Source: an uncultured delta proteobacterium
GTDB lineage: Bacteria > Desulfobacterota > Binatia > UBA9968
DNA length: 64,000 nt
Direction of reading: 5' to 3'
NCBI GenBank assembly: GCA_963728565.1
Contig: CAVSLC010000025.1
Location: 1 to 64,000, forward strand
A model generated the notes under the pieces. The model had not been told where the DNA came from. It worked only from the letters and a program-made list of their open reading frames with translations, and searched no databases. The position numbers and the translations under genes are program-made. This document shows positions 7,685 to 38,372 of this stretch, piece by piece. Each line of letters begins with the position of its first letter. Position 1 is the stretch's first letter.

Positions 7685-7923
7685 ATGTATCCTTCCCTGA
7701 TCTGATCAGCACTTTGTCCCTCCGGGGAACGTAATTTACTACGGTCTTCGATGTCAACTACCCTGAGTCTGACGTTTCCCTAGATTGAAGACGCAATCAG
7801 TCCGACCGCACCGAACCGTCAGGTCTGATCGCTTCAACTGAAATGGAAGGTTGGGGAAACTATCTGTCATGTAAACTTTGTTGCTAGTGTTTGTATCTTT
7901 AGCATCCTGATAGACACGCTGCG

Positions 7924-7948
7924 GTATCCAAAAGTATCAAGCAGTATC
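7924..7948. repeat. Three GTATC direct repeats at a 10-bp period; candidate activator (UAS) site
   Basis: GTATC at 7924, 7934 and 7944, about 90-110 bp upstream of the sigma-54 site at 8033. Confidence 0.4.
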
Positions 7949-8032
7949 GTTTAGGCAGTCATTTCAGCCGGGCATCGGTTGAAAGCCGAAGAAAGTGGCC
8001 GGTTAACGATGCCCAAAGAAGATTTAGGCAAA

Positions 8033-8048
8033 TGGCACAACCGATGCA
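8033..8048 (+). promoter_or_regulatory. Sigma-54 (-24/-12) promoter
   Basis: TGGCACAACCGATGCA has correct GG-N10-GC spacing; a near-identical copy lies upstream of the paralogue. Confidence 0.75.
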
Positions 8049-8098
8049 CTAAAGAAGCTGCAGGAAGTGAAAACTTGAACAGAAAGGAGGTGAGAAAG

Positions 8099-8398
8099 AT
8101 GAAAACTATACCGCTTCTAACCAACTTGATTATCTCTTCGACATTGTTCTGGGGAGTGCCGACAGTGGGCAGTCAGGAATTGATTCTCAAGGTGCCTGTC
8201 GAGACCACCCGCTACTGCCACATGAAGTTTCCCCCGATCAGCGAAGAGTCACTATTCTCCGGCAGCCCGGTGCTGAACGAGAGCGCCGGCAACAGCATCG
8301 ACTTCTACGGCTCGTGCGATCACGACCCGTTGGGATTAGATGAGATCCGCTCTCAGAGACAGCTACTTATGCGCGGGTACTTCGCCGATGGTGATTAA
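8099..8398 (+). CDS. Small secreted two-Cys protein (paralogue A)
   Basis: AGAAAGGAGGT RBS; signal peptide; YCHMKFP..IDFYGSCDHDPLG; close paralogue at 14942-15244. Confidence 0.85.
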   Translation: MKTIPLLTNLIISSTLFWGVPTVGSQELILKVPVETTRYCHMKFPPISEESLFSGSPVLNESAGNSIDFYGSCDHDPLGLDEIRSQRQLLMRGYFADGD

Positions 8399-8414
8399 GA
8401 CGATGAGCCGCAGT

Positions 8415-8449
8415 TCAGGGGAGGGCGAAAGCCCTCTCCTGAGTTTTTT
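8415..8449 (+). terminator. Intrinsic terminator
   Basis: CAGGGGAGGGC-gaaa-GCCCTCTCCTG followed by a T-run. Confidence 0.8.
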
Positions 8450-8737
8450 AAACTTGCTTAAAGCTTCGCCTAGTACTATATCCTTGCTCACTTCATTGCT
8501 TCTGCTTGCACCTCGTTTTTGGCTGGAACCGAACCGTCATAGATTGGATTAGTGAAAGCTTTGCGCTTCATTGATACACCAAAATGAATCATAGCTTGGC
8601 TGGTTTAATTGCCGCGCCTCGGCTCACAGGTCTAAATCTTGACAAGCAAACACGAGAGCCGCTGTCTGTCAGGCTGACTCCAGATTGTACTGTTTCGGAG
8701 TACCAATCGGAGCATTTAACCTCACCGACATTTTGAA

Positions 8738-10966
8738 ATGCTCCGTCTTCGTCAGGCAACGTATTTTGGCTTCATGATCGGCATCTTCGGGGTGCTCCTA
8801 AGTTTAATTCCTTGGGTAAATGAAATCGAGGAAGACTCGGGTCTGGGGATGTTGTTGAATCTTCGCGGTCCGAGAAAACCACCGTCGGAAACCGTCGTCG
8901 TGAGTATTGATAAAGAATCGTCGGAGTCTCTCAATGTTTCGGGAAATCCGGCGCGTTGGCATCGTTCCATCCATGCTCAGTTGATTGAAAAACTGGCGGC
9001 ACGGGGAGCGCTCGCCATCATCTTTGACGTCTATTTTATAGAACCGCGATCGTTATCGGAGGACAATTTACTTGCGGCCGCAGTAAAGAAAGCCGCGAAC
9101 GTTGTGCTTGCTGAGCCCCTCAGGGCCAGGGAATTTTCCGGCCGTAATGATTCGGGTCAGGGTGAACACCGCCTGGTCAGAGCAGTCAAACCCATTGCTG
9201 CTCTTTCAGAGAATGCCATCGCCACAGCCCCGTTTGTACTTCCAAGGCTGCCTGTCAAAGTGAATTATCATTGGACCTTTCAACCGGATGCCGGTGACTC
9301 GCCGACGTTTCCGGTGGTGGCGTTCCACCTCTATGCCTCAGAGGCATACGAGGACTTTCGCAGTATGCTCGAAAGGATAAGCCCGGATCAGGCGACAAGA
9401 ATCCCGAGCAACGTTGCGGCGCAGCAAAACGGCACCGTGGCTGTCATCAAAGCTGTCAGGCAGATGTTCCTAAGCCAGCCGTGGATTTACCAGCGCATGT
9501 TATCCGACCTAGAGGGCCCGGTTATCGGAGCCGCCCCTGGGAAGCATGACTTGGTAAAATCTCTGATAGAGCTGTACGGCGGGAGTTCCAAGCGCTACCT
9601 AAATTTTTACGGCCCGCCACGAACAATCGCCACCATTCCATTCCATCGCGCCTTACGGCTCGGCGAGCAAAGAGGCGAAGATGTGGATCTCAAGGGAAAA
9701 GTCGTTTTCGTTGGCATGTCGGAAACGTTGACTTCAGAGAGAGAAGACAGCTTTTATACGGTCTTTTCACAATCCAACGGTGTGTTTCTCAGCGGTGTGG
9801 AGATCGCCGCCACGGCGTTCTCTAACTTGCTCGCTAACGACTATATAAAACCGGTCAACTCACGAGATTACCTTCTGACGATTTTTACCTGGGGTATTCT
9901 TGTGGGACTGATTTGTCGAATGATGAATATGCTCGCCGCTGCGCTATGCGTAGCTGTGTTGAGCTTTTTTTATCTGTTCGCTGCCAAGTATCAGTTTCAG
10001 AGCGACGCCCTGTGGTATCCGATTATAGTTCCTCTGTTCTTGCAGTCTCCCGGGGCTTTCTTTGGTGCCGTGCTCTGGAACTCACTTGAGACCAACAAGG
10101 AGCGACGACACATCAGGAGGGCTCTCGGCTATTACGTGCCCAGTGAATTGGTTGATCTAATCGTCAAGAATAGAGTTGATTTGCGAAAAGGTGGCCAAAC
10201 GGTTTGCGGAGTTTGTCTATTTACGGATATCGCAGGATACACCAGTGTCTCAGAAAGCATGGGACCGCGTGAGTTAAGCGAATTGATGCACCGCTACTTC
10301 GAGGCGGTGTTCGCGCCGATCAAGCAAAACGGCGGCTTGATCACTGATCTCAAGGGCGACTCGATTCTTGCCATATGGAAGGCACCTCGCCCTGATACTG
10401 CGCTATGTCGGCAAGCGTGTATGGCTGCCCTCGGCATTGCCCACTCCGTCAGCCAGTTTAACAAAACGTCTGGCTCGAAACTTCCCACCCGTATCGGTCT
10501 TCATGCCGGGCAGATGTTTCTCGGCAACATTGGTGCCGGCGACCATTACGAGTACGGTCCTACAGGGGACACAGTCAATACCGCCTCCCGACTGGACAAT
10601 CTCAATAAAATGTTGGGCACGGAAATCCTTGTCTCCGAAGAAGCGATTCGAGGCCTCGATAGTTTCGTTACCAGAAAAATCGGAAATTTTCGGTTAAAGG
10701 GAAAGGCTCAACCGCTCACCGTTTACGAATTACTTTGTCGACAAGGCGAGGCCGCGGAACAACAACAAAAAGCTTGCACGTCATTCTTGGACGCGCTCGA
10801 AACATTTCATAGGCAATATTGGAATGAGGCCGAAGAAAAATTTCAACGCTGCAATAAAGTATGGCGAAACGATCGTTTGGCCGATTTCTATATAAGACGG
10901 TGCCAAGAGTATAGGAAAACTCCGCCTCCCGATTGGGACGGTGTAATTCCATTGGAAGAAAAATAG
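8738..10966 (+). CDS. CHASE2-domain membrane-bound class III adenylate/guanylate cyclase
   Basis: N-terminal TM; CHASE2 motifs (VVVSIDKES, WHRSIHAQLI, SGVEIAAT); TM helices; LFTDIAGYT, GDS, GDTVNTASRL; C-terminal PPPDWDGV. Confidence 0.93.
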   Translation: MLRLRQATYFGFMIGIFGVLLSLIPWVNEIEEDSGLGMLLNLRGPRKPPSETVVVSIDKESSESLNVSGNPARWHRSIHAQLIEKLAARGALAIIFDVYFIEPRSLSEDNLLAAAVKKAANVVLAEPLRAREFSGRNDSGQGEHRLVRAVKPIAALSENAIATAPFVLPRLPVKVNYHWTFQPDAGDSPTFPVVAFHLYASEAYEDFRSMLERISPDQATRIPSNVAAQQNGTVAVIKAVRQMFLSQPWIYQRMLSDLEGPVIGAAPGKHDLVKSLIELYGGSSKRYLNFYGPPRTIATIPFHRALRLGEQRGEDVDLKGKVVFVGMSETLTSEREDSFYTVFSQSNGVFLSGVEIAATAFSNLLANDYIKPVNSRDYLLTIFTWGILVGLICRMMNMLAAALCVAVLSFFYLFAAKYQFQSDALWYPIIVPLFLQSPGAFFGAVLWNSLETNKERRHIRRALGYYVPSELVDLIVKNRVDLRKGGQTVCGVCLFTDIAGYTSVSESMGPRELSELMHRYFEAVFAPIKQNGGLITDLKGDSILAIWKAPRPDTALCRQACMAALGIAHSVSQFNKTSGSKLPTRIGLHAGQMFLGNIGAGDHYEYGPTGDTVNTASRLDNLNKMLGTEILVSEEAIRGLDSFVTRKIGNFRLKGKAQPLTVYELLCRQGEAAEQQQKACTSFLDALETFHRQYWNEAEEKFQRCNKVWRNDRLADFYIRRCQEYRKTPPPDWDGVIPLEEK

Positions 10967-11016: not shown

Positions 11017-14000
11017 ATGAAAACAGCCTGTTCATTCCGAATCGGGCTCCTGGCTTTTATCTCATCGATGATCTGGAGTTATTCGCAGATCTCATTCGCA
11101 GCTACGTCATGCGATCCGTGGATTGCCCAAATGGTCTCCGTACAGGGAAATGTCGAAGTGAGACGCGCAGGGCAAACGCAGTGGCAGCCGGCGCGATTAA
11201 ACGACCTATATTGTGCCGGTGACCGCGTCCAGGTTGGCGAAAGAAGTCGCGCCGACCTCGCCTTGGCCAATCAACCGATTTTGCGTCTCGATCAAAATAG
11301 CACCATCACTTTGGGAGAAATAAGAGAGCAAAGAACCGCCCTGGTAGAGTTACTGAGGGGCGCTCTGTTTTTTTTCAGCCGGCGGCCGCGCAATCTCGAG
11401 ATACAGACACCATTTGTCAATGCCGGGGTAGAGGGAACCGAAGGTTTTGTACTAGTTGATGCCACTCGAACCTTGATCAGCATTTTCGAGGGCACGGTGC
11501 AAGCCTCGAATCAACTCGGCATGCTGACTCTGGCTAGCGGTCAGACGGTAATAGCTGAACAAGGCAGGGCGCCGACACTGACAGTCACCGTTCGTCCTTA
11601 TGATGCGGTTGCCTGGGCATTGTACTATCTGCCCACCCTCTATTTCCGCCCGCAGGAATTTCCAGCTGGTTCGGGCTGGCAGGGAATGGTTCGAAGTTCG
11701 ATCGAGGCTTACGTCAGAGGTGATCTTGCCGCGGCCTTCGACAGCATTCAGGCAATTCCGGCCACGCTAAACGAGCCGCGCTTCTTCGCCTACCGAGCCG
11801 CGTTGCTCCTGGCGGTCGGGCGGGTCGATGAGGCAAGTCAGGACATCGAACGGGCACTGGATTTAAACCCCAACGACAACAATGCCCTCTCGCTTCAATC
11901 GAGTATCGCAGTGGTTCAAAACGAGAAGGAGAAAGCGCTTGCTCTCGGGCAAAGAGCTGTCACGGCTGATCCCCAATCGGCTTCCGCGCGGATCGCGCTT
12001 TCATATGCCCAGCAGGCCAATTTCGATCTCGACAACGCTTTGGATAGCCTGCAACAAGCAACGCAATTAGATCCCGATAATGCCCTAGCCTGGGCTAGAT
12101 TGGCTGAGGTTTGGCTGTCGCTCGGTCACCTCGATGAAGCCTTAGAGGCGGCTAAACGGGCGGTCGCGCTGGATCCAAACTTATCACGAACTCAGTCGGT
12201 TTTAGGCTTTGCCTTTTTAACCCGGGTCAATACGTACGAGGCGAAAGAGGCTTTCGAGAGAGCTATCCTGCTCGATCAGGCTGACCCGCTCGCTAGACTC
12301 GGATTAGGTTTAGCAAAGATCCGTGAAGGTGATCTCCACGAGGGGAGAATGGAAATAGAGATAGCCGTAAGCCTGGATCCCCAGAATGCGCTGATCCGCA
12401 GCTATTTGGGCAAAGCTTACTTTGAAGAGAAAAGGGGCAAACAAGCGGCTGATCAGTACGAAATGTCCAAAGGATTGGATCCGAGGGATCCGACGCCATA
12501 TTTCTATGATGCCATTCTCAAGCAAACCACCAACCGACCGGTCGAGGCTCTACGGGACATGGAGAAAGCCATTGAATTAAACCATAATCGCGCGGTTTAT
12601 CGTTCACGTCTTTTGCTTGATGCGGATCTCGCCGCGCGCAGCGCAGCGCTAAGTCGAATTTATAGCGATTTGGGTTTCCAGCAGCTTGCTCTGGTAGAGG
12701 GATGGAAGTCGGTCAACACCGACCCGACGAATTTTTCCGCGCACCGTTTTCTAGCGGACTCCTACTCTGTGTTGCCGCGCCACGAGATCGCCAGGGTCAG
12801 CGAGCTACTGCAGTCTCAATTGCTTCAGCCGCTCAACATGACGCCGATCCAGCCGCATCTTGCCGAAAGCAATTTGTTCCTCATCGGCGCTCAGGGTCCG
12901 GCAGCTCTCTCATTCAACGAGTTTCATCCGTTGTTTAGCCGAAACGGCGTGACATTTCAGACGACCGGGCTTGCGGGTGAAAACAAGACCTATGCGGGCG
13001 AAGGAGTGTTCTCCGGGATTTACAACAAGGCAGCGTTCAGTCTGGGTGGCTTTCACTTCCAAACGGATGGCTGGCGAAGAAATGCTGACCAACGGGACGG
13101 GATTGCCAACGCTTTTATTCAATTGCAACTAAGGCCTCAAACCAGCTTTCAATTCGAATATAGATTTAGAGATACGACCAATGGCGATCTTGAACTGAAT
13201 TTCTTCCGTGATGATTTTCTACCGAATCTGAGAGCCTCACAAGAACAAGAAACCTACCGTGCCGGTATACGGCATGACTTTTCGCCGACTTCCATCGTAC
13301 TCGCCTCGTTTATTCATCAACGGCAAGATATGCTTTCCCACGATGAACGGCCTCCTTTTGTTTCCGCCATAGATGTAAAGTCGCCGGGCACTCGATCCCT
13401 CAGCGCGGAGCTTCAACATCTTTTCCGCTCACAATACGTCAATTTTACAAGCGGTGTGGGGCATGTGAATCTCAATAGAGAACAAATACGTCGTTTCGAA
13501 GCTATCTTTCTGCCGTTCCCCCTCACTGAACGTATTGATCTCGATGTCAATCATACCAACCTCTATCTTTATTCTCATCTTAACCTTTTAAGAAACATCA
13601 TGGTCACCCTCGGTGGCAGTGGTGATATCTTTAAGACAGACAATAGTTCGACTTCAGAATCGAGAAACCAGTTCAACCCGAAATTTGGCGTGATCTGGAA
13701 TATACTTCCGAATACGACATTTCGGGCAGCGGCCATCCGAGCATTTAAACGGACGTTGATCACCGACCAGACCCTCGAGCCGACACAAATCGCCGGCTTC
13801 AATCAATTCTATGACGATATAGAATCTACCGAGTCGCGGCGTTACGGGATCGCTCTCGATCAAAAAATTTCCAACAAACTTTTTGGCGGAATCGAATACT
13901 CCCGACGGTACCTGAAGGTTCCGATTCCATTCACAGACCCGTTCACTGCTGTTTCTGAAATCATGCGCAAGGAGTGGCGCGAATATCTGGCTCGACCCTA

Positions 14001-14412
14001 CATTCTGTGGACGCCTCATGATTGGCTGGCCGTTAGTGGCGAGTATCAACATGAGCGTTTTTTGCGTGACTCATCGAATCTCAACTTTGGCTTGAAAGAA
14101 ATTACAAACAAAAGAGCTATTGTGGGAGTTAGATTTTTTCATCCTTCCGGATTCAGTTTAGGCGTGAAGAGCACTTATCTCGACCAAAGCGGCGATTTTC
14201 AGCGACAGGGTATTTGTTGCCAAACGGGCAGCAGTCGATTTTTCTTATTCGATGCGGCGATTAGCTACCGTTTCCCCCAACGCTACGGTTTCTTCACCGT
14301 CGGAGGTACAAACATCTTTGATCGGAAGTTCAAGTATCAGGAAACAGACTTTAGTAACCCGACTATACAACCGACCAGGATGTTATTTGCTAGGTTAACA
14401 TTGGCTTTTTAG
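11017..14412 (+). CDS. FecR-domain / TPR / TonB-dependent-like beta-barrel outer-membrane receptor (NsrA-like)
   Basis: Signal peptide; FecR motif (TPFVNAGVEGTEG); many TPRs; beta-strand-rich C-terminus ending in Phe. Confidence 0.88.
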   Translation: MKTACSFRIGLLAFISSMIWSYSQISFAATSCDPWIAQMVSVQGNVEVRRAGQTQWQPARLNDLYCAGDRVQVGERSRADLALANQPILRLDQNSTITLGEIREQRTALVELLRGALFFFSRRPRNLEIQTPFVNAGVEGTEGFVLVDATRTLISIFEGTVQASNQLGMLTLASGQTVIAEQGRAPTLTVTVRPYDAVAWALYYLPTLYFRPQEFPAGSGWQGMVRSSIEAYVRGDLAAAFDSIQAIPATLNEPRFFAYRAALLLAVGRVDEASQDIERALDLNPNDNNALSLQSSIAVVQNEKEKALALGQRAVTADPQSASARIALSYAQQANFDLDNALDSLQQATQLDPDNALAWARLAEVWLSLGHLDEALEAAKRAVALDPNLSRTQSVLGFAFLTRVNTYEAKEAFERAILLDQADPLARLGLGLAKIREGDLHEGRMEIEIAVSLDPQNALIRSYLGKAYFEEKRGKQAADQYEMSKGLDPRDPTPYFYDAILKQTTNRPVEALRDMEKAIELNHNRAVYRSRLLLDADLAARSAALSRIYSDLGFQQLALVEGWKSVNTDPTNFSAHRFLADSYSVLPRHEIARVSELLQSQLLQPLNMTPIQPHLAESNLFLIGAQGPAALSFNEFHPLFSRNGVTFQTTGLAGENKTYAGEGVFSGIYNKAAFSLGGFHFQTDGWRRNADQRDGIANAFIQLQLRPQTSFQFEYRFRDTTNGDLELNFFRDDFLPNLRASQEQETYRAGIRHDFSPTSIVLASFIHQRQDMLSHDERPPFVSAIDVKSPGTRSLSAELQHLFRSQYVNFTSGVGHVNLNREQIRRFEAIFLPFPLTERIDLDVNHTNLYLYSHLNLLRNIMVTLGGSGDIFKTDNSSTSESRNQFNPKFGVIWNILPNTTFRAAAIRAFKRTLITDQTLEPTQIAGFNQFYDDIESTESRRYGIALDQKISNKLFGGIEYSRRYLKVPIPFTDPFTAVSEIMRKEWREYLARPYILWTPHDWLAVSGEYQHERFLRDSSNLNFGLKEITNKRAIVGVRFFHPSGFSLGVKSTYLDQSGDFQRQGICCQTGSSRFFLFDAAISYRFPQRYGFFTVGGTNIFDRKFKYQETDFSNPTIQPTRMLFARLTLAF

Positions 14413-14477: not shown

Positions 14478-14864
14478 ATGAACTTTTATTTGCATGCTGC
14501 ATCAATAGCGATGGCAATGGTCTTCGCATCATGTGCTGGCTACGACAGACACGTACAGCAACCCCCGGGTGGGGATGTGAGAAGTCCGTTCAAACCCGCT
14601 CCGTTAAAACGGGAAGAGAAAGTGGCAGACGGAAAATGCACTGCTGTGCTGGAGTTTGATACAAAAGGTCAAATCGCTAAAGTGAATTCTCCTGATTGCA
14701 TTACCGGACGGGGTAGATTGTTCGTCACGGCGGATAAAAAGCGGTTCTTTGAACTTAGGCATACCAACGAATCGATCACGTTTGGTGATAACACCACGAC
14801 GTGTTACGGCCCCGACAATCCCAGCCCTCCCTGGTGTGTCTGCACAGAAGCGCCGTGTCCCTGA
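14478..14864 (+). CDS. Cys-rich lipoprotein of unknown function
   Basis: AAGGAGG RBS; lipobox FASC; six further Cys including the terminal CVCTEAPCP. Confidence 0.75.
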   Translation: MNFYLHAASIAMAMVFASCAGYDRHVQQPPGGDVRSPFKPAPLKREEKVADGKCTAVLEFDTKGQIAKVNSPDCITGRGRLFVTADKKRFFELRHTNESITFGDNTTTCYGPDNPSPPWCVCTEAPCP

Positions 14865-14885
14865 ACGACAAAGCGTCGCATTCAT

Positions 14886-14941: not shown

Positions 14942-15244
14942 TCACTCGCCATCGTCATAAATCCCGCGTCGTAGAACGCGCCGCTGGGCCTTGATTTCAT
15001 CCGCTCCCAACGGGTCATGATCACACGACCCATAGAAATCGATGATGTTGCCGGCGCTCTCATTAAGCATTGGATTTACCGAGAACAGGGTCTCTTCGCG
15101 TATCGATGGGAACTTCATGTGGCAGTAACTCGTGGTCTCAGCAGGGACCTTGACGATTCCTTCCTGACTCCCCGCAGTGGGCACGCCCCAAAACAATGTC
15201 GAGAACAGCAACAGGTTGATTACTAGTGATACTTTGTTTTTCAC
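14942..15244 (-). CDS. Small secreted two-Cys protein (paralogue B)
   Basis: Same RBS context AGAAAGGAGGTGAGAAA; GTG start at 15244; YCHMKFP..IDFYGSCDHDPLG. Confidence 0.85.
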   Translation of the reverse strand: MKNKVSLVINLLLFSTLFWGVPTAGSQEGIVKVPAETTSYCHMKFPSIREETLFSVNPMLNESAGNIIDFYGSCDHDPLGADEIKAQRRVLRRGIYDDGE

Positions 15245-28903: not shown

Positions 28904-31900
28904 ACTCAGACGAGTTTGTCGCATATCTTGAGGAGCTGGGAGTTCGGCTTAGTGCCGAAGGCGAACGTCTCCACGTAAATGCGCTCAGGGGGAAACTGCC
29001 CAACGACGTGCGCGCCCAGATCGCCGAACAGAAAGCGGGGATCCTTGCATTTCTGCGCAGGCGACGCTCCAATCGAGTCACCGCACCACCCGTCAAACCT
29101 CGCTCAACTGCTGATCCAGCCCCTTTATCGTTTGCTCAGGAACGGCTCTGGTTCTTAGACCAACTCGACCCGGGACGTGCCGTTTACAATATCTGCCGGG
29201 CATCGCGTCTGCTCGGAACTCTAAACACCCCCGTTCTACAAACCAGTCTCAACGCCGCCGTCAATCGACATGAAACCCTGAGAACCGCCTTCAGACTAAT
29301 CGATGGCCAGCCGAAACAAGTCGTTCAGCCCAGCCGGACCATTTCCCTCGAAACTGTCGACCTAAGCACCGTGCAAGAAAGCGAGCGCGCCGCGAATATC
29401 CAGCGCGAAATCGAATCGCAAGCCCTACGTTCTTTCGATCTCCAGTCCGGCGCAATGCTGAGATGCGTGTTGCTGCGGGTTGGTGAACAAGAACATATCC
29501 TCATCTTGGCGACCCACCATAGCGCCGCCGATGCCTGGTCGCTGGGGACCCTGACGCGGGAGTTGTGGACACTTTATGATGCATTCTCCAATGGCAGGCC
29601 ATACGCCTTAGAGCCGCTCGCCGTGCAGTACTCGGACTACGCGGTTTGGCAACGTGAGTGGTTGACAGGGGATGTGCTCGAATTGCAGCTGGGCTATTGG
29701 AAGAAACGCCTCAAGGATGTTTCGGTTCTCAATCTGCCGACGGATCGGCCGAGAAGGCCGCGTCAGAGTTTTCACGGCTCGCGGCTGACCATCGAGTTGC
29801 CGGACGACCTGACAAGCGCCGTGAACGAAATGAGCCATCGCTTTGCGGTGACGCCCTTCATGATCTTGCTCGCGGCGTTTCAGGTGTTGCTCTACCGTTA
29901 CACGGGACAGGAAGATGTCGTAGTTGGCTCCCCGATTGCCAATCGCTGCCGCACGGAACTTGAGGGGTTGATGGGATTCTTCGTCAACACGCTGGTCTTG
30001 CGCGCCGACCTCTCTGGAAACCTCTCGTTCAGCGAATTTCTGTCACGGGTGAGAGACACTTGTGTTGGCGCCGATGCCAATCAAGACTTGCCTTTCGAAA
30101 AGCTAGTTCAGGAACTGCAACCCGAACGCGACCAAAGCCGCAATCCGCTGTTCCAAGTCATGTTCGTTTTGCAAAATGCGACGCGCCCGTTTACCGGCAT
30201 TCCGGGGCTACGAATCGAGCCACTGGAAGTCGCTACCACCCGCTCACCATTCGATCTGTCGCTGTTCCTGCGTGAGCGCGACCGTAAGTATGTCGGCAAT
30301 ATCGAATACAGCACCGACCTGTTTGATCACGACCGAATCGAGAGAATGGCTGGTCATTTTCAGATTTTATTGGAGGCGATCGTCAAAGAGCCCGACCAAT
30401 CAATCGCGAAATTGCCGATACTCACCGAGGCAGAGCGGCATCGAATTTTGGTCGAATGGAACGACACCGCGGCCGATTATCCCAAAGACAAGTGCATCCA
30501 CCAGCTATTCGAAGCGCAAGTCGAGCGTACACCGGAAGGCATCGCAGTGGAATTTGAAGACCAGCAGATCACTTACCGGGAGCTCAATCGGCGAGCGAAC
30601 CAGCTCGCGCATTACTTACTGACACTTGCGGTCGGGCCGGAGAAGTTGGTCGGCATCTGCGTGGAGCGGTCCATTGAGATGGTGGTCGGATTGTTAGGGA
30701 TTCTCAAAGCAGGCAGCGCCTATGTGCCGTTAGATCCGGCTTATCCTAAAGAGCGTCTCCGTTTCATGTTGAAAGATGCAAACATCTCAGTGTTAGTGAC
30801 ACAGGAAAAGCTCTTAGAAAGTACTCAAAATTTAACGCACCGCACTCGGCACTTCGATGTCTGTCTCGATCGTGACTTACCGATGATCGAGCAGCAAAGG
30901 AGTGAGAACCCAGTAGCCCTAATTGACTCTCACAATCTCGCTTATGTGATTTACACCTCAGGTTCGATGGGGCAACCCAAAGGCATTGCCATTGAACATC
31001 AAAACACCGTCGCGCTACTCAACTGGGCAAAGGAGGTGTTTTTACCAGTAGAAATTGCCGGTGTGCTGGCTTCGACATCAATTTGTTTCGATCTATCCGT
31101 CTTCGAGTTGTTGGTACCATTGAGTCAAGGCGGCAAGATTGTTCTCGTTGAGAATGTATTGTTCTTGCACGAAGCAGCAAGCAACGGAATCACGTTGGTA
31201 AACACAGTCCCTTCCGCGATGGCAGCCTTGCTGGCTGCCGGAGCATTGCCCGCTTCAGTTCGGGTCGTAAACCTAGCGGGTGAGCCACTCCGATCAGAGC
31301 TGGTGAATCAACTTTATCAAACCGGTACGGTCAAAAAGGTGTACGACTTATACGGTCCCTCGGAAACAACAACCTACTCGACATTCACACGCCGAACTGC
31401 TATCGGCCCGGCTACAATCGGCCGGCCGATAGCAAATACGCGTGTGTACTTACTGGACTCACACTTGCAGCCGGTCCCCGTCGGTGTGCCGGGTGAGCTT
31501 TGCATCGGTGGAGCAGGCGTAGCTCGTGGTTACTTGCATCGCCCCGAATTGAGCGCGGCCAAATTCATTACCGATCCCTTTAGCAAAGATCCCAACGCGC
31601 GCATTTACCGCACCGGAGACCTCGCGCGCTACCTACCGGACGGCAACATCGAATTCCTCGGCCGCACAGACAATCAGGTAAAAATCCGTGGATACCGCGT
31701 CGAGCTTGGCGAAATTGAAAGCGTACTCAACCAGCATCCAGTCGTGACAGAGTCCGTAGTCGTTGCGTCTTCATTTCCTACCCCTAGACAGGGGAGGATT
31801 AAGGTGGAGGTGGCACTCCCGACAAACAGCATGCGAGAAGAGACACCCCTATCCCAACCGTACCCCGTCGAGGGGGAAGGAGTTTCGGAATCGAATCGCA

Positions 31901-33732
31901 ACTTAATCGCGTACTTTGTGTCTAATACTGAAAAGCCTTCAGCACCCGAGCTACGGAGTTTTCTCAGTCAAAGACTTCCTGAGTACATGATTCCTTCAGC
32001 ATTTGTAGTCTTGGAGGCCTTACCTCTAACCCTTAACGGCAAAATCGATCGATCGAAGTTGCCACCGCCCGATCGCGCGAGACAGGAGATCGATCAAAGG
32101 TTTGTTGAGCCTCTATCAGAGAATGAAGAGTTGGTCGCACAAATCTGGCGCGAAGTGCTCAAGCTCGACAAGATAGGCATCCACGACAACTTCTTCGAAT
32201 TGGGCGGACACTCGCTTCTAGCAACTCAGGTAGCTGCGCGGCTCAGCGATGCCTTCAATCGAGAAATTCCGTTGAAGACTCTCTTCGACGCGCCAAGCGT
32301 CGCGATGCTGACGGAAAGCCTTGAAAGCATCATCAGGGATGGCAACACGCCCAAACTTCCGCCGATTGTTCCGATGGCCCGCGACCGGCCGCTGCCGTTA
32401 TCTGTGAACCAGGAGCATTTGTGGCGTTTGGATCAGATGATTCCGGGCACGCATTTCTTCAATATGCCTTTTGTCTATCAGCTAAGCGGTTGTCTGAATA
32501 TAAAAGCTCTCGAGAAAGCCATTGCGGAAATCATCAGGCGCCAGGAAGCGCTACGTACTGTCTTTATCGATACGGACGGCCGGCCAGCTCAAGTCATTGA
32601 ACCGGCTTCTGACTTCCAACTGCCTGTCACCGATCTTCGAAGCCGCGCGGCGGCTAGCCTGGCAGAACATGCGGCTAGTTTGATACTGGAAGAACGGGAA
32701 CAGCCGTTTGCTCTATCGAGAGGTCCACTCTTTAGGACAAAACTCCTGCGGTTGACCGATGATGATCATCTGTTTCTGATCACAATGCACCATATTATTG
32801 GCGATCATTGGTCAATGTTGGTATTTCGTCGAGAGTTAGTCGTCCTCTACAAAGCCTTTTCCCATGGCCGCAGCGCTCCCTTACCCGAACTCTCCATTCA
32901 GTTCGCCGACTTTGCGTGTTGGGAACGGCGGGCAATCGAACGAGGATCCATGAAACACCAGCTCGTGTACTGGAAGAAGCAGCTTGCTGCGCCTGCGCCC
33001 GAGCTTAGGTTTCAGAGAGATGGGAGACGGCGAAAGCGGCTACCCTTTCAGATCTGCCGGCAATCCATGGAGTTTGATGAAAATCTGTTTGTCTCGGTTA
33101 AAGCGCTGGCGCGTAAGGAGAACTGCACACCTTTTTTGATCGTGCTCACAGCTTTAAACGCGATGCTTTACCTTTACACCCGAGAGACGGATATTCCGAT
33201 AGGCACGCTGGTGGCCAACCGGCGCCGACCGGGAACGGAAGGATTGATCGGCCACTTTGTTAACACTGTCGTGCTACGCACCCGATTTTCGCCCGAGATG
33301 ACCTTTAGTCAATTATTAGCACAGGTACGAGAGGTTACCCTCTCAGCCCATGCGCACCAGGAGCTTCCGTTTGAACACTTAGCCCATAGATTAGACCGAA
33401 AGAAAAACACGAGAAGTGGCTCGCTCTTTCAGGTCCTATTCATCTATCAGAATTGGAGCTTTCCGTCTCAAGATACAGCTGGCCTTAGTCTTGCCTCTGT
33501 AGATATGCGTCAAGCAGCAGCCGAACAGGAATTAATGCCTACAACGTTTGACTTGATTTTTAATCTAAGGGAAGCGTCAACGATGTTAACAGGAACTATC
33601 AACTATAAAGTCGAAAGTGTTGACGAGGACATCGTTCGCAGGATGCGTGGATCGTTTGGCGAGGTGTTGCAAAGGATGATAGCTCACATAGGGCAACGGT
33701 TTGCAAATCTTTCTGTGGATGTGGAGATTTAG
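28900..33732 (+). CDS. NRPS 2 (TubC_N docking - C - A - T - C terminal)
   Basis: The frame upstream of GTG 29008 reads INSDEFVAYLEELGVRLSAEGERLHVNALRG (TubC_N-like) from ATA 28900 after a GAGGAG RBS; HHSAAD, YTSGSMGQPKG, GGHSL, terminal HHIIGD; no TE. Confidence 0.88.
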   Translation: MNSDEFVAYLEELGVRLSAEGERLHVNALRGKLPNDVRAQIAEQKAGILAFLRRRRSNRVTAPPVKPRSTADPAPLSFAQERLWFLDQLDPGRAVYNICRASRLLGTLNTPVLQTSLNAAVNRHETLRTAFRLIDGQPKQVVQPSRTISLETVDLSTVQESERAANIQREIESQALRSFDLQSGAMLRCVLLRVGEQEHILILATHHSAADAWSLGTLTRELWTLYDAFSNGRPYALEPLAVQYSDYAVWQREWLTGDVLELQLGYWKKRLKDVSVLNLPTDRPRRPRQSFHGSRLTIELPDDLTSAVNEMSHRFAVTPFMILLAAFQVLLYRYTGQEDVVVGSPIANRCRTELEGLMGFFVNTLVLRADLSGNLSFSEFLSRVRDTCVGADANQDLPFEKLVQELQPERDQSRNPLFQVMFVLQNATRPFTGIPGLRIEPLEVATTRSPFDLSLFLRERDRKYVGNIEYSTDLFDHDRIERMAGHFQILLEAIVKEPDQSIAKLPILTEAERHRILVEWNDTAADYPKDKCIHQLFEAQVERTPEGIAVEFEDQQITYRELNRRANQLAHYLLTLAVGPEKLVGICVERSIEMVVGLLGILKAGSAYVPLDPAYPKERLRFMLKDANISVLVTQEKLLESTQNLTHRTRHFDVCLDRDLPMIEQQRSENPVALIDSHNLAYVIYTSGSMGQPKGIAIEHQNTVALLNWAKEVFLPVEIAGVLASTSICFDLSVFELLVPLSQGGKIVLVENVLFLHEAASNGITLVNTVPSAMAALLAAGALPASVRVVNLAGEPLRSELVNQLYQTGTVKKVYDLYGPSETTTYSTFTRRTAIGPATIGRPIANTRVYLLDSHLQPVPVGVPGELCIGGAGVARGYLHRPELSAAKFITDPFSKDPNARIYRTGDLARYLPDGNIEFLGRTDNQVKIRGYRVELGEIESVLNQHPVVTESVVVASSFPTPRQGRIKVEVALPTNSMREETPLSQPYPVEGEGVSESNRNLIAYFVSNTEKPSAPELRSFLSQRLPEYMIPSAFVVLEALPLTLNGKIDRSKLPPPDRARQEIDQRFVEPLSENEELVAQIWREVLKLDKIGIHDNFFELGGHSLLATQVAARLSDAFNREIPLKTLFDAPSVAMLTESLESIIRDGNTPKLPPIVPMARDRPLPLSVNQEHLWRLDQMIPGTHFFNMPFVYQLSGCLNIKALEKAIAEIIRRQEALRTVFIDTDGRPAQVIEPASDFQLPVTDLRSRAAASLAEHAASLILEEREQPFALSRGPLFRTKLLRLTDDDHLFLITMHHIIGDHWSMLVFRRELVVLYKAFSHGRSAPLPELSIQFADFACWERRAIERGSMKHQLVYWKKQLAAPAPELRFQRDGRRRKRLPFQICRQSMEFDENLFVSVKALARKENCTPFLIVLTALNAMLYLYTRETDIPIGTLVANRRRPGTEGLIGHFVNTVVLRTRFSPEMTFSQLLAQVREVTLSAHAHQELPFEHLAHRLDRKKNTRSGSLFQVLFIYQNWSFPSQDTAGLSLASVDMRQAAAEQELMPTTFDLIFNLREASTMLTGTINYKVESVDEDIVRRMRGSFGEVLQRMIAHIGQRFANLSVDVEI
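31775..31881. repeat. REP-like palindromic element inserted in frame in the NRPS A4 domain
   Basis: 38-nt arms (31775-31812 and 31844-31881) are reverse-complementary at 25/38 positions by manual count; each arm is internally CCCC..GGGG. Confidence 0.65.
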
Positions 33733-33836: not shown

Positions 33837-35942
33837 ATGTCATCGTTAACAAGCTGGGAACCGTCGGAACGCGCAGGACTTGGAGAATCATTGGAATACA
33901 TCCAGAGGTTGATCAGAGTGCCCTTGGATCATGATAACGAAAAAGAAGGTGAGTTCGATTTATACTACTTCATTCACAAACCCGTTGGATCAGTGAAAGA
34001 TGGTCTGAAAACTGTGCTCTTCTGCGCCGGCGGGCCAGGCCAAATAGTCCGGCCTCGCGATGAAAATTTATTGAAGTTTCTTAGAGATGAAAATACCGCT
34101 TATCGGATAGTCCATTTCCATCTTCGCGGCTCAGGCTTTAGCCAAATCCCACCAGATAGTGAGTCTGATAGATTTGTAAGAACATCCCAGGCGGTTCGAG
34201 ATATAGAAAGAATTCGTTTAGCCGTTCTTAAAGATCAACCATGGGACGGAATAGTTGGTTACAGTTATGGAACGGTGCTGGCACAGCAATATGCCAGTAA
34301 ATACAAACTAATGGTTCGAAAATTGATCCTGATCGGACCGCTATCGATGCACAAATTCAAGTCGCTCAAACCGGCAGAGGTAAAGGCTGCGTTCGATGTA
34401 TACGCAAAGGAGGTTCAGAAAGTTCGACAAACGGTGATAGGCAAGATTTACGAAAAGAATGAAGAATTTAAAGATAAGGTTTCCGAAGCCGACATAACCG
34501 AAATTGAAGCCAAGCTAGCGGACGTTTTTGACAGGATTGAAGGAAGCTTTGGCAGCGAAAAGTTTGTCGCCGACAAGCACAGCAAATTTTTTGATGATGG
34601 TAAGTTGGAGAAAGCGCAGTTGGAAAAGTACAGTAAACTCTTTTTCGAGAAGCTGTGCGAATTACGATTTATCGGCTGGCAACCCACTGAGATTGAGAAT
34701 CTCAGGGCTCGACAAGTGGAAGCGGCAAGGGTGATAGCGTTGGAATTAAAATCCGATGATCTTAGTTTAGGGGGTAAACTGGGCACCTTAGAGCCTAAAA
34801 ATGATTCCGCCGACGACCCTGTCGATGAATCATACAGAACGTTGTATGTAATGTGGGCCTACGACGGTTTTCGCCCGAGGTTTTTAAAAGAGTTGGCGGA
34901 AAGCAATCAAGATATCGGCGCCGCGCTCAAAAAGGGCGCCGAGAGAGTGGGCGGCAACGAGTTCATTGAAAAGATCGGGATCAGTAATGTCAAGCCAACG
35001 GTATGGGATCCCGCAGAGCATAAACACGACGTGCCGACTCTTATTTTAGAAGGAGATGCCGATCCTGTTACAGCAGATGGACAAGCGGAACATTACTTCG
35101 AGCAGGCTCTTACGGGGCCAAGAACTTTCATTAAGTTCGCAGGAGTTGGGCATGGATTCGATTTACCCCTGATCAACATCGAGAAGCCGTATCTAATCGG
35201 CTCGGTTCTTATCGATCCGAAGACCGTCAAAAAAGGGGAGAGCAACCTGGAGCTGTCGGGCTCGATTCCTAGTGTCGCTCGAATCATTGATAGTGGCGGA
35301 GGTGGAAACGATAGAGTCGCTGCAGTGAGCGGTTCCAATCTCGAATTTCAAGACGCCATAATACTCCGCGACAACAAAGTGTCTGTTAGGGTCATTAATC
35401 GCTCGGCTCAGGAAGAGGATACGGCGAATATCCATCTTACGATTAAGCACAATCTATTTACCGCCGGAGTCACCCTGAAAGACTCAAAGGTCCCTCGAAA
35501 AGGCAAGTCCTGGGTTTCCGGGACGTTTAAAATAAACGAGGAGAATTACGTTCTGAAACCACCGGCCAATCTGGAAGATGGGCTGGAGCTAATTGAAGAA
35601 TCTGTGCAATTGGAACTTCCCGATAAGGTGTCCCTTAAGATCAAAAACACCGCTGATCATGACGTGGAGGCTAAACCCAAAAATTGGATCTACATGCCGA
35701 CTCGTGGAGCAAAGTTTAAGGGCCCCTGTCAGGGGAAGGGTCTTCCTTCGCGAAATTGTCTAATCTATGCTTTTTTAGAGATGGAACATGAAGATTTCCG
35801 AAACCAGAAGTCTGAATTTCTGGAATTGGGCGGAGAAATACGTCAGTACATACGAACCATAGATCATCGTCCCGGCAAGACCGGTGAACAGATTCAATCG
35901 TCCAGTGAAATCTTTGAAAAGGTACCTGAGAATGTTTCATAG
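33837..35942 (+). CDS. Alpha/beta-hydrolase (S33/TAP-like peptidase) with a large C-terminal beta-rich extension
   Basis: AGGPG oxyanion motif, RGSGFS, GYSYGT nucleophile, EGDADPVT, GVGHG. Confidence 0.85.
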   Translation: MSSLTSWEPSERAGLGESLEYIQRLIRVPLDHDNEKEGEFDLYYFIHKPVGSVKDGLKTVLFCAGGPGQIVRPRDENLLKFLRDENTAYRIVHFHLRGSGFSQIPPDSESDRFVRTSQAVRDIERIRLAVLKDQPWDGIVGYSYGTVLAQQYASKYKLMVRKLILIGPLSMHKFKSLKPAEVKAAFDVYAKEVQKVRQTVIGKIYEKNEEFKDKVSEADITEIEAKLADVFDRIEGSFGSEKFVADKHSKFFDDGKLEKAQLEKYSKLFFEKLCELRFIGWQPTEIENLRARQVEAARVIALELKSDDLSLGGKLGTLEPKNDSADDPVDESYRTLYVMWAYDGFRPRFLKELAESNQDIGAALKKGAERVGGNEFIEKIGISNVKPTVWDPAEHKHDVPTLILEGDADPVTADGQAEHYFEQALTGPRTFIKFAGVGHGFDLPLINIEKPYLIGSVLIDPKTVKKGESNLELSGSIPSVARIIDSGGGGNDRVAAVSGSNLEFQDAIILRDNKVSVRVINRSAQEEDTANIHLTIKHNLFTAGVTLKDSKVPRKGKSWVSGTFKINEENYVLKPPANLEDGLELIEESVQLELPDKVSLKIKNTADHDVEAKPKNWIYMPTRGAKFKGPCQGKGLPSRNCLIYAFLEMEHEDFRNQKSEFLELGGEIRQYIRTIDHRPGKTGEQIQSSSEIFEKVPENVS

Positions 35943-36014
35943 CCGGAAAACTGCTTGACAAGCGGAGCATCATGTTGTTAGGAATAACCGCAAAAGCGTA
36001 ACAAGGAGGTTGCC

Positions 36015-36251
36015 ATGACCCTTACCAGCCAAGCGCTCGAAGATGAAGACGCTGCGGATTACGAAAAAATCAAGAAAAGACATTTGCAACTAAGCTCAGA
36101 CAAGCAAAAGGAATTAGGCGACGAACAAGCGAAAATTGTTCAAGAGGCTATCGGCTCGGTCGATCCGGAGACTCGCGCTACAATAATTAAAAAGATGGCT
36201 CCGTTAATAAAGAGCCAGATCCTCACGAACCCTAAATTCAAGAACGCTTAA
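36015..36251 (+). CDS. Small helical hypothetical protein
   Basis: Strong AAGGAGGT RBS; 78 aa; co-oriented with the cluster. Confidence 0.6.
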   Translation: MTLTSQALEDEDAADYEKIKKRHLQLSSDKQKELGDEQAKIVQEAIGSVDPETRATIIKKMAPLIKSQILTNPKFKNA

Positions 36252-36516
36252 AAACGTTCTGTCAGACCGTATCAGAACCTGTTAAGGTTCTTCGTAATTC
36301 CCGGCTGCTCAGGGTTAGCGTGGGCTAGGTTTACCGCTTTTCGCTCCTGGGGTTTATTGAATTTGAAACTTGCGGCGAATCTGGCTGCCAGCCCAATTTG
36401 CTTATGTTTTCCATATTGTTATCGGGAATCCGCCACTGGAAATCCATAAACTAATCGTCAGGATGCTGGGGACACCCGCTATCGCTACATGAACGTTCTC
36501 CGCGGCGGCTTTTCCG

Positions 36517-38088
36517 TCAAATTCCCAACCTCTTTAATTTCTTGATCAACCCCTGGCGGCTGAGACCCAGGGCTTGGGCCGCTTTCTGTTTATTGCCGCC
36601 GGAGTCGCGCAGCGCTTCGGCGATCATGCGACGCTCGAGGGCTTCGACGGCATCGGGCAACGACTTGAACCAACGCGCCGGCGCCTCTGCGGCTTTTTCC
36701 ATTGCCGGCTTTGTCAGTGCGGCTGTCGAGCCTTCAGGGGGTTTCTCCGGAGTGCGAATGGACGGATCGATATGTTCCTCCCCAATAGTTTTTCCTCTAA
36801 CTGAAGCTACAAGGCGTTTGATCTCATTCTCTAGCTCCCGCTCGTTACCTGGCCAGTGATAACTTGTCAGGTACTCCAAGGCGGCCGGAGTAAACTGCTT
36901 TGGCTCGATCTTCATCGACTTGCAGTATTTCGCCAGAAAATGGTTTGCCAGCAGCGGAATATCTTCCGGTACTTCCCGCAAAGCCGGAGTTTCGATGTGG
37001 ATCACTTTTAAGCGGTAGTATAGGTCGACGCGGAAGTGTCCGTTCTTGATCTCGGCTTCCAGATCTTTGTTGGTGGCGGCGATGATGCGCAGGTCCAGGG
37101 GCAGCGCCGTTCGGCCGCCGACCCGGGTGAGAGACCTTTCCTGGAGTATGCGCAGAATCTTGGCTTGCGAGGGCAAACTGAGATCGCCGATTTCGTCGAG
37201 GAATAACGTGCCGCCTTGAGCCTCTTCGAACTTGCCGCTACGCCGGTCCACGCCGGTGGCGATGCCTCTTTCAATGCCGAACAATTCCGCTTCGACGATG
37301 CTCTCAGGCAGAGCCGCACAATTGACCGCGACAAACGGATGTTTTGCTCGCGGGCTGTTGTAGTGCAAGGCCTTGGCCACCAACTCTTTGCCGGTTCCAC
37401 TCTCGCCCTGAATCAGCACGTCGACCGAACTATCGCGAATTTGATCGATGAGGCGCACGACCGACTGAATGCGATGGCTCATGCCGATGATGTTTCGGGT
37501 CGAGAATTCCCCGCCGATTTCCTTCCCGACCTCCGCGCCTTGTGGATTCGGTATTGCCCTATCAATCTGTGTAGTCTCAATGGCATCGCAGATATGGGAG
37601 GCCAGTGACTGAAGGATCTCGGCATCCTCGTTGGTGAACATGCCGCTCTTTTTGTTGATGGCTTCGCCGACACCGATGATTTCGCCGAGGGAATTTCTGA
37701 TTGGCACGGCAAGCAGTGTTTTGGTGCGATAGCCGATCCTTTGATCGACTTCCTTGAAGAATAGCGGATGCTCGTAAGCATCGGCGACGTTGATCGTCTG
37801 GCCGTTCATCGCCGCTGCACCGGCTATGCCCAAGCGGGCATCGAACAGCAGAATTCTTTTCTCATTCTCATGGGTAATGACCGACCAGAGCTCGCATTTC
37901 TCGCGATCGAGAAGAAAAATGCTTGCCCGGTCGGCGTGAAGCAGCGCGGCAGCCTCGTTGGTGATCAGCTCCAGAAGAGAAATGATGTCCCCTACGGAGG
38001 TCATTCGTTTGCAGGCGTTGAGGACCGTTCGCAATTGTTCCAAGCGGGGCGTCTGGATTTCAGGAGAGGCTGGCACGGCTTCGTCCAT
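36517..38088 (-). CDS. GAF-domain sigma-54-dependent Fis-family transcriptional activator
   Basis: GAF; GESGTGKE; ELFGIERGIATGV; LFLDEIG; WPGNERELEN; Fis-type HTH. Confidence 0.93.
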   Translation of the reverse strand: MDEAVPASPEIQTPRLEQLRTVLNACKRMTSVGDIISLLELITNEAAALLHADRASIFLLDREKCELWSVITHENEKRILLFDARLGIAGAAAMNGQTINVADAYEHPLFFKEVDQRIGYRTKTLLAVPIRNSLGEIIGVGEAINKKSGMFTNEDAEILQSLASHICDAIETTQIDRAIPNPQGAEVGKEIGGEFSTRNIIGMSHRIQSVVRLIDQIRDSSVDVLIQGESGTGKELVAKALHYNSPRAKHPFVAVNCAALPESIVEAELFGIERGIATGVDRRSGKFEEAQGGTLFLDEIGDLSLPSQAKILRILQERSLTRVGGRTALPLDLRIIAATNKDLEAEIKNGHFRVDLYYRLKVIHIETPALREVPEDIPLLANHFLAKYCKSMKIEPKQFTPAALEYLTSYHWPGNERELENEIKRLVASVRGKTIGEEHIDPSIRTPEKPPEGSTAALTKPAMEKAAEAPARWFKSLPDAVEALERRMIAEALRDSGGNKQKAAQALGLSRQGLIKKLKRLGI

Positions 38089-38119
38089 CCGGTTCTGAGT
38101 AACACATCAGCAAAAACGC

Positions 38120-38178
38120 TGTCAACGAAGGTGACGCACTGTCAACGCCGTCGCTGTCCTGTGGCTTGCGTGTCAAGG
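38120..38178. promoter_or_regulatory. Repeated TGTCAA motifs; candidate activator binding sites
   Basis: TGTCAACG at 38120 and 38140, TGTCAAGG at 38171; GTCAAC-gaa-GGTGAC quasi-palindrome. Confidence 0.45.
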
Positions 38179-38240
38179 CAGGTCTTCTCGCGATCATGGG
38201 CGGTCGATACGGCCATGGCGGCCCCGGCCGGGGACGGGAG

Positions 38241-38256
38241 AGGCATTCCCATTGCG
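38241..38256 (+). promoter_or_regulatory. Sigma-54 promoter divergent from the activator gene
   Basis: AGGCATTCCCATTGCG has GG-N10-GC spacing with TTGC. Confidence 0.55.
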
Positions 38257-38372
38257 GATTATGATTTCTCCTGGGATTGATGACCGGGGAGATAAACCAA
38301 TGATGATCGGCTGATAGTTACTTTGGGATATTGCTCATTATTAAGCCTCTGTCCCGTAGTGAGGACGATCCA

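Follow-up and report, generated by a model that had tools for sequence, protein, structure and literature searches.

The first 64,000 nucleotides of contig C25 (CAVSLC010000025.1) of an uncultured soil bacterium of Candidatus Binatia (source genome G000, assembly GCA_963728565.1, 4.5 Mb and 80.6% complete), hereafter the window, contain a block that encodes an outer-membrane receptor next to a CHASE2 class III nucleotide cyclase, a second (STAND) cyclase at the head of a nonribosomal peptide synthetase (NRPS) operon, two small secreted proteins and an activator of sigma-54 promoters with a GAF domain. We consider it reasonably probable that these genes form a conserved circuit in which two cyclase inputs converge on one activator gated by a cyclic nucleotide monophosphate (cNMP). 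An earlier note on the window had proposed that the reader of the cyclic nucleotide here is this GAF activator rather than a Crp-type protein, with the small secreted proteins as its output. Comparative sequence evidence of four kinds argues for that idea: the residues of the GAF pocket, the cyclases found near activator genes, the linkage of receptor and activator, and a common operator combined with sigma-54 promoters. Pfam confirms every protein that the note had named.

The GAF domain, likened in the note to those of phosphodiesterases (PDEs) and CyaB, is recognized by Pfam together with a sigma54-AAA domain and a Fis-type helix-turn-helix (HTH). Its best sequence matches in the Protein Data Bank (PDB) are CyaB2 (E 1.5e-40), an HD-GYP GAF, and PDE2A, and the same three lead by fold (model pLDDT 75.5). 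Nucleotide contacts in CyaB2 GAF-B are attributed to R291, T293, I308, T309, D356, and N359 (PMC4411481), and the first five have R, S, I, T, and D as their counterparts in the window's GAF; the base-contact residues of a CyaB2-type cNMP-binding GAF are thus present except at the N359 position. Among 69 GAF homologs, R, S/T, D, T, N, K/R, and F are retained in 67, the other two being gapped, and the NKFDE motif is found with N in 67, K/R in 67, F in 67, D in 65, and E in 48. The activator therefore shares with CyaB2 and the GAFs of PDE2, 5, 6, and 10 (PDB 1YKD, 1MC0) the fold, the NKFDE-type motif and the named pocket residues, but where those enzymes carry GAFs in tandem it has a single one, fused to a transcriptional AAA ATPase, and its cNMP binding is a prediction. 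The next nearest GAF relatives are tandem-GAF proteins resembling adenylyl cyclases, in the layout of CyaB, from Desulfobacterales and Acidobacteria (loci L239-L241, L243-L245, L247-L250, and L252).

On the output side, the activator has the PF00158 AAA domain with Walker motifs and the Fis-type HTH of a sigma-54 enhancer-binding protein. At the position of the GAFTGA loop that contacts sigma-54 it has GIATGV, a departure that the note had overlooked, and its homologs have GVATGV; this loop is near-invariant across lineages, and the recognition helix of the HTH is conserved among the homologs together with the operator described below. The same GAF-AAA-HTH layout is known from the group III enhancer-binding proteins NifA, NorR, FhlA, and PexR, none of which carries the G(I/V)ATGV loop. 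The GAF ligands of NifA, NorR, and FhlA are 2-oxoglutarate, nitric oxide, and formate. PexR is described as sensing peroxide through its GAF, repressing a sigma-A promoter and activating sigma-54 promoters (PMC12754779), and the activator resembles it in the repression proposed at its own sigma-70-like promoter and the activation proposed at sigma-54 promoters. It falls below all NCBIfam cut-offs (347 bits against the 529 needed for nifA).

A matrix trained on other lineages, with the window's own subgroup excluded, yields the operator TGTCAAC-N3-GTTGACA. Activator genes are preceded by a TTGACA box that this palindrome overlaps, in many cases as two copies spaced about 20 nt from each other, and the arrangement is conserved across lineages; the left half of the palindrome, which played no part in selecting the sites, matches in 15 of 18 non-Binatia loci. 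The GTCAAC motifs listed in the note are, taken alone, common (0.45 per kb), and they are real as half of this 17-bp palindrome. Two of the sites so defined, at 38120 and at about 15383-15399, fall where the note had placed motifs; it had missed the stronger one at 33575 (19.9 bits). We considered whether GTCAAC is a mere reversed -35 box and rejected this, given that the other half of the palindrome is independently conserved and that sites exist away from any -35 box. Ranked among 120 sigma-54-like sites in the source genome, the operator at 7870 comes first and that of small protein B fourth, and the former is preserved in genomes G119 and G121.

Two of the three sigma-54 promoters claimed earlier, those of the small proteins at 8033 and 15294, hold up: the motif recurs about 65 nt 5' of the start in 28 of 39 homologous small genes, compared with 1.2% of random 450-nt windows. 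The third, at 38241, was rejected as the activator's promoter, being on the forward strand and facing away from the gene; matches of equal score lie inside open reading frames (ORFs). The 7-nt core of this element (38241-38256), a hairpin loop, is inverted in the sister genome G121 (comparison with L032). An operator of at least 8 bits precedes 18 of the 39 small genes, against a background of 3.9%, although some of these genes share the activator's upstream site and the rows are not independent; for hydrolase genes, which lie at the end of the NRPS cluster, the count is 15 of 17 against the same background. The operators lie 70-250 nt 5' of conserved sigma-54 promoters, often between a divergent activator and small gene, the arrangement of a palindromic enhancer 5' of a -24/-12 promoter, with the sites themselves predicted.

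The site at 33575 lies within the coding sequence of NRPS2. Third codon positions there are fixed in 16-17 of 17 sequences while the encoded residues vary, and the site is absent from the internal condensation (C) domains; on both grounds we rejected the explanation that it is a by-product of protein conservation. A GG-N10-GC element lies 96 nt 5' of it, and we read the pair as a putative internal promoter with a downstream enhancer, a roadblock also being possible.

The placement of these sites bears on a rival in which the activator binds a cNMP but, with its GIATGV loop, makes no contact with sigma-54, acting instead as a repressor or sigma-70 regulator while another enhancer-binding protein fires the promoters. 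The Phe of GAFTGA is indeed lost, operators overlap a -35 box or sit in coding sequence as roadblocks might, and the source genome has 13 other activators with near-canonical loops. We nevertheless regard this as very improbable: the operators keep their 70-250 nt distance from conserved sigma-54 promoters, the loop hardly varies between lineages, and DVUA0100 of Desulfovibrio vulgaris, a protein with a GVATGV loop, is likewise predicted to act as an activator at sigma-54 promoters (PMC4641369). By its description DVUA0100 differs in having an N-terminal domain of unknown type and type III secretion targets.

The note had asked for a co-occurrence check across relatives, which we ran on 123 genomes of the order, 90 of them forming a family subset. 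The parts do recur together in Candidatus Binatia, but receptor and NRPS are not strictly coupled. The receptor is present in 31 and the activator in 42 of the 123 genomes, and 22 of the 90 family genomes have both (Fisher p 7e-4, overstated by kinship). In these 22, the two genes lie within 40 kb of each other in eight, 804 kb apart in one (G076), and on different contigs in 13. Five genomes (G053, which is 98% complete in 7 contigs, G119, G089, G050, and G039) place receptor and activator within 1.7-10.8 kb, and these five have no NRPS ortholog at E ≤ 1e-150. The metagenome contigs L264, L270, and L273 repeat the receptor-activator linkage. Scoring NRPS orthologs by the third adenylation (A) domain at that cut-off gives 23 of 90 genomes (34 of 90 at 1e-130); by hand count the activator is present in 21 of the 23 and the receptor in 12, and in 16 relatives the activator faces the hydrolase end of the NRPS cluster. 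Complete blocks of receptor plus NRPS are found again in G042 and G048; L264 has one with a shortened NRPS. Since receptor with activator but without NRPS and NRPS with activator but without receptor both occur, we recognize two modules, both of them linked to the activator. One is the receptor-cyclase pair, the other the STAND-NRPS-hydrolase block; they are separate, share a common reader and are joined in this genome.

That signalling genes with no relation to each other came together by chance in one island might be suspected from the variable gene order and from the 13 of 22 genomes with receptor and activator on different contigs. The repeated linkage, the common operator and the DNA-level conservation of the intragenic site largely refute it, and we give it almost no credence.

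Evidence for a tie between activator and cyclases also comes from farther afield. From 80 loci we took 31 activator loci with titles that did not put them among the window's close relatives, though mislabelled kin may be included. Eight of these have a class III cyclase in the fetched stretch, against 0.80 expected from the cyclase counts of the genomes; seven are confirmed by Pfam and the eighth is identified only by our own profile, which was partly trained on these loci. The neighbours include CHASE2, 7TM-DISM, receiver-fused, and STAND types. All 31 genomes contain a cyclase, and in those of L212 and L234 the single cyclase found adjoins the activator.

Several observations weigh against an activator gated by the product of these cyclases. 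On the genomic side, nine of 31 receptor genomes lack the activator at E ≤ 1e-100, the pair in G076 is 804 kb apart, this activator is found in three of the 80 metagenome receptor loci examined (two of the 25 with at least 8 kb of flank), 23 of the 31 distant activator loci have no nearby cyclase, and the genomes are kin, so the statistics are overstated. In the GAF, the N359 position is Ile in the window and Thr in 53 of 69 homologs, and the top structural match is the HD-GYP GAF 4MCW. The GAF resembles the cAMP-binding CyaB2 type, and the CHASE2 cyclase looks cGMP-type from its residues (see below); this mismatch is softened by the report that isolated CyaB2 GAF-B binds cAMP as well as cGMP (PMC4411481). 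The loop lacks the Phe of GAFTGA, and the sole precedent found for it, DVUA0100, is itself a predicted activator (PMC4641369). No rpoN was found in the source genome, which is 80.6% complete; it is present in all five relatives examined. Finally, one Crp-like gene lies elsewhere in the genome, with none in the window's locus.

Some of these points lend themselves to a second rival: the activator truly regulates the small genes through sigma-54, yet what its GAF senses is a different small molecule, the cyclases' output being read by Crp or other proteins and the shared neighbourhoods reflecting shared islands. A PDE-like GAF fold is seen in 4MCW, which is not known to have a cNMP ligand, the source genome has a Crp-like gene, and a cyclase within 10 kb is lacking at most of the distant activator loci. 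Against this stand the near-invariant pocket residues and the roughly tenfold enrichment of cyclases of several unrelated types near distant activators, and we judge it unlikely. In favour of the proposed circuit, other nucleotide readers take this position beside the receptor in other loci: a Crp protein (L335), a GAF activator with canonical GAFTGA (L310), and sigma54-AAA proteins with a cNMP-binding domain (L298, L331). The L310 activator (837-2393) has a similar recognition helix, TRQGLLNK (SRQGLIKK in the window), and lies directly 5' of a CHASE2-receptor operon. In L298 (6286-9072) and L331 (11514-13217) the cNMP-binding domain is fused to the sigma54-type AAA, with a 4Fe-4S domain added in L298, a second possible link from cNMP to an AAA domain.

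The input pair is of an already known type. Pfam bears out the FecR-TPR-barrel receptor beside a CHASE2 cyclase that the note had described, and the homology to the Sinorhizobium protein runs over the full length: the receptor profile matches a FecR-TPR-barrel protein of Sinorhizobium meliloti pSymB with an HHalign probability of 99.5% (E 1.2e-22, 975 columns). That gene precedes a CHASE2 cyclase gene, and from position and architecture we infer that the pair, unannotated in the record, is NsrA and CyaK. The window's receptor has the FecR, TPR, and beta-barrel parts of this type, and both catalytic Asp residues and the Arg are present in 29 of 29 Binatia CHASE2 cyclases; of the 53 metagenome receptor loci that extend at least 1 kb upstream, 41 have a cyclase or CHASE2 domain. 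The S. meliloti pathway is described as leading from a protein signal, uL2, through NsrA and the CHASE2 cyclases CyaK, CyaD1, and CyaD2 to cAMP and the Crp-type regulator Clr (PMC13001267, PMC7529298, PMC10463352). The window has in common with it the FecR-TPR-barrel protein adjoining a CHASE2 class III cyclase and differs in its proposed GAF sigma-54 reader, in the order of the genes (cyclase, then receptor), in the variable small Cys-tailed genes 3' of the receptor and in a STAND-NRPS block that shares the reader. Campylobacterota are described as having a conserved cluster of a CHASE2 cyclase, a phosphodiesterase, an outer-membrane FecR protein along with a TPR protein (PMC9239204), the same input module; in the part of that description on which we draw, neither a GAF sigma-54 reader nor an NRPS is named.

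The cyclases differ from that of S. meliloti in specificity residues as well. The pSymB cyclase has K at the first site, whereas this adenylyl-type Lys is found in none of the 29 Binatia CHASE2 cyclases, which have D (12), E (9), N (5), G (2), or A (1), hence D, E, or N in 26; the second site is G or A, with G in 26 of 29, and the window's pair is D and G. The guanylyl cyclase Cya2 aligns with E and G at these sites, a pair described as its guanylyl specificity pair (PMC4215837). Given the missing Lys and the Cya2-like residues, the CHASE2 cyclase probably makes cGMP.

The second cyclase of the note is also borne out by Pfam, with zinc-ribbon, class III cyclase, AAA, and TPR domains, and its gene lies directly 5' of NRPS1 in 19 of 19 relatives with the start of the cluster on the contig. 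STAND cyclases have Q at the Lys site in 16 of 17 and H at the Asn site in 15 of 17, and the window's protein is likewise non-canonical (Q/H at the Lys site, H at the Asn site). Comparable residue changes are known in active mycobacterial cyclases, and on its residues cyclase activity is plausible. The NRPS domains are confirmed as well (20560-33732), with the correction that the first two ORFs are one gene, carried in relatives as a single ORF of 2190-2860 amino acids. Because it is intact there and other genes of this assembly are split, the break is likely an assembly error. The first C domain of NRPS1 (around residue 755) has HQIVCDG in place of HHxxxDG, and the Asp that usually binds the amine seems to be missing from A domains one and three (see also L113 and L158). 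The A domains may resemble Gly, Ala, beta-Ala, and Lys2-like types; a TIGR03443 match is below cut-off.

The note had offered the NRPS product as an output or as the receptor's ligand in an autoinducer-like loop, and the comparison does not support this part of its model in the form given. In such a loop the NRPS peptide would be the ligand, or the activator would switch on the NRPS operon. NRPS, STAND cyclase, and activator do travel together, receptor-plus-NRPS blocks recur in G042, G048, and, shortened, L264, and the A-domain cores of modules 2 and 4 differ between relatives, having been swapped, as variants of a signal would. Yet within 450 nt upstream no sigma-54 site or operator of at least 8 bits was seen before any of 19 STAND or eight NRPS1 genes (the operator counts for receptor and CHASE2 genes are 0 of 26 and 1 of 23), and within 1.5 kb of the STAND-NRPS operon an operator occurs in one of 17; 10 of the 19 STAND genes have a sigma-70-like pattern instead, against 0.3% of background, although the pattern was read off the same sequences. 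The five genomes that pair receptor and activator without an NRPS ortholog, and the receptor's presence in just 12 of 23 NRPS genomes, also speak against it. Neither a synthase under the regulator nor co-inheritance of synthase and receptor is found, and we regard the loop as improbable. With no operator at its start, and travelling with the STAND cyclase and activator rather than with the receptor, the NRPS operon would be neither a direct output nor an obligatory source of ligand.

TPR domains often bind peptides. Taken together with the protein signal of the S. meliloti pathway, this makes the variable small Cys-tailed genes found 3' of the receptor in relatives better candidates for a ligand or co-sensor, we infer, than the NRPS product. 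In the window this slot holds a lipoprotein; homologs with 39-48% identity lie directly 3' of the receptor in four of the 80 metagenome loci, and the Atlas returned no match for it. A complex predicted from receptor residues 215-1131 and lipoprotein residues 48-128 scored 0.01. Elsewhere one to three copies of an undescribed disulfide-hairpin family of 70-100 amino acids ending in C-x7-12-C occupy the slot (57 clusters at 50% identity; e.g., L061:16001-16252, L065:7544-8134, L066:8808-9430, L100:11704-12344, and L170:10834-11361), some with signal or lipoprotein peptides and most without. In the 90 family genomes all seven matches lie within 0.5 kb of a receptor, the query having been seeded from such neighbours, and the profile found no match in 301 genomes across the phylum, a search without a known positive. 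As activator outputs the hairpin genes do not stand out, with an operator of at least 8 bits in just two of 25 rows, both one locus. That the lipoprotein belongs to this family was not borne out, a profile built without it scoring it at 2 bits. Secreted Cys-rich proteins of 230-290 amino acids lie 3' of other receptors (L067:16722-17429, L069:16538-18249, L081:6119-8182, L099:7150-7965, L261, and L262), with a C-terminal match to the lipoprotein of the window in L261 and L262.

In the proposed circuit an outside protein or peptide would bind the barrel receptor, whose TPR and FecR domains would, by homology, relay the signal to the CHASE2 cyclase, which would make a cNMP, probably cGMP. The STAND cyclase heading the NRPS operon would be a second, intracellular input, possibly sensing the NRPS product, and both cyclase operons would start at sigma-70-like promoters. 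Judged by residues and gene context, the cNMP would bind the activator's GAF and turn on its ATPase. Conservation of the sites suggests that the activator binds TGTCAAC-N3-GTTGACA, represses its own sigma-70 promoter and turns on the genes of the small secreted proteins at their sigma-54 promoters; the hydrolase gene is probably a further target, driven from the putative promoter inside NRPS2.

Bacterial readers of cAMP and cGMP are mainly Crp-family proteins. The note had known of no description of this combination, and full-text searches, covering titles and abstract openings with few subscription papers, found none of a cNMP-binding enhancer-binding protein or of such a Binatia cluster. The combination and the class of ligand thus appear new, the input pair and GAF activators as such being known. 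A broader, three-part proposal is, taken jointly, tentative and rather doubtful: that the GVATGV proteins with a CyaB2-type GAF and the operator TGTCAAC-N3-GTTGACA are a widespread, undescribed class of sigma-54 activators gated directly by cAMP or cGMP; that this class serves as an alternative to Crp in Binatia as well as in genomes bearing the labels Acidobacteria, Nitrospira, Dadabacteria, Spirochaetia, and Gemmatimonadota; and that in Binatia it integrates a cGMP-making receptor reading cognate hypervariable disulfide-hairpin peptides, as a kin or quorum signal, with a STAND cyclase monitoring the NRPS product. If true, the circuit would newly link nucleotide messengers to enhancer-dependent transcription, and cGMP would gain a reader in transcription that is not of the Crp family. 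With its operator, promoters and pocket residues predicted, it can be tested in E. coli while the host stays uncultured. The small genes 3' of the receptor encode candidate ligands for receptors of the NsrA type, and the GVATGV loop probes how far a sigma-54 contact loop can vary.

Table 1. Genes and predicted sites of the block, in window coordinates (A, adenylation; T, thiolation; C, condensation; aa, amino acids)
Feature	Position	Strand	Basis or remark
Predicted activator operator, palindrome of TGTCAAC-N3-GTTGACA type	7870..7886		12.8 bits; 163 nt 5' of sigma-54 site
Sigma-54 promoter of small protein A	8033..8048	+	Motif match, recurrence
Small secreted protein A, 99 aa, signal-like N-terminus, YCH...DFYGSCD motif; predicted output	8099..8398	+	Family conservation
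Terminator-like hairpin 3' of small protein A	8419..8440
Sigma-70-like promoter CTTGCTT-17-TATAT, 5' of cyclase-receptor operon	8453..8483	+	Pattern derived by eye
CHASE2 membrane cyclase (class III)	8738..10966	+	Pfam; catalytic D, D, N, R intact
FecR-TPR-beta-barrel outer-membrane receptor, NsrA-like	11017..14412	+	Pfam; HHalign
Lipoprotein, 128 aa, Cys-rich tail, variable slot 3' of receptor	14478..14864	+	Candidate ligand or co-sensor
Small secreted protein B, 100 aa, paralog of A; predicted output	14942..15244	-
Sigma-54 promoter of small protein B	15294..15309	-	Motif match, recurrence
Weaker operator region 5' of small protein B promoter	15363..15401		Best site ~15383-15399, 7.6 bits, rank 4/120
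4'-Phosphopantetheinyl transferase	16217..17020	+	Pfam
STAND cyclase: zinc ribbon, class III cyclase, AAA, TPR	17110..20541	+	Pfam
NRPS1, A-T-C-A-T-C-A-T	20560..28903	+	Pfam; one gene, three frame changes ~24400-24915
NRPS2, C-A-T-C, C domain terminal	29008..33732	+	Pfam
Sigma-54-like element GG-N10-GC inside NRPS2	33480..33495	+	Weak match; same place in most relatives
Strong operator within NRPS2 3' end	33575..33591		19.9 bits; 260 nt 5' of hydrolase
Alpha/beta hydrolase, proline-iminopeptidase-like; possible activator target	33837..35942	+	Pfam
ORF of 78 aa, no known family, present in G120 too	36015..36251	+
GAF-AAA-HTH enhancer-binding protein; CyaB2/PDE-type GAF; loop GIATGV; recognition helix SRQGLIKK	36517..38088	-	Pfam
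Sigma-70-like promoter of the activator	38096..38156	-	TTGACA 38120-38125, TG-n-TA box near 38096-38104
Operator overlapping activator promoter	38120..38136		15.7 bits; weak second site 20 nt off
Sigma-54-like match, chance or relic	38241..38256	+	Points away from activator gene; no gene to drive

The two small proteins of the earlier note are real and are paralogs, 70% identical. Their family is present in 80 of the 123 genomes of the order; in the Atlas small protein B matches just hypothetical clusters (Binatota), and NCBIfam has no name for any of the small proteins. Three soil RNA libraries share just 5-7% of words; contigs from them span both small genes and the lipoprotein, from which transcription or its level cannot be read, and leave the receptor mostly uncovered. 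In the window and close relatives a conserved -10-like box (38088-38101) lies about 7 nt 5' of the activator's ATG, which suggests a leaderless mRNA. Other genes of the source genome are likewise broken by frameshifts, namely a P-type ATPase (window 50595-53296), a STAND cyclase paralog and two other sigma-54 activators (contigs C22, C20, and C21), which suggests indel errors in the assembly. The GC content of positions 1-6000 of the window is about 65%, whereas the genome has 54% and the block after this stretch about 50%; the stretch represents a transferred segment or a chimeric contig end. A diadenylate cyclase gene of the CdaA/YbbR type, a further gene of nucleotide signalling, lies at 61061-62248, 23 kb from the block.

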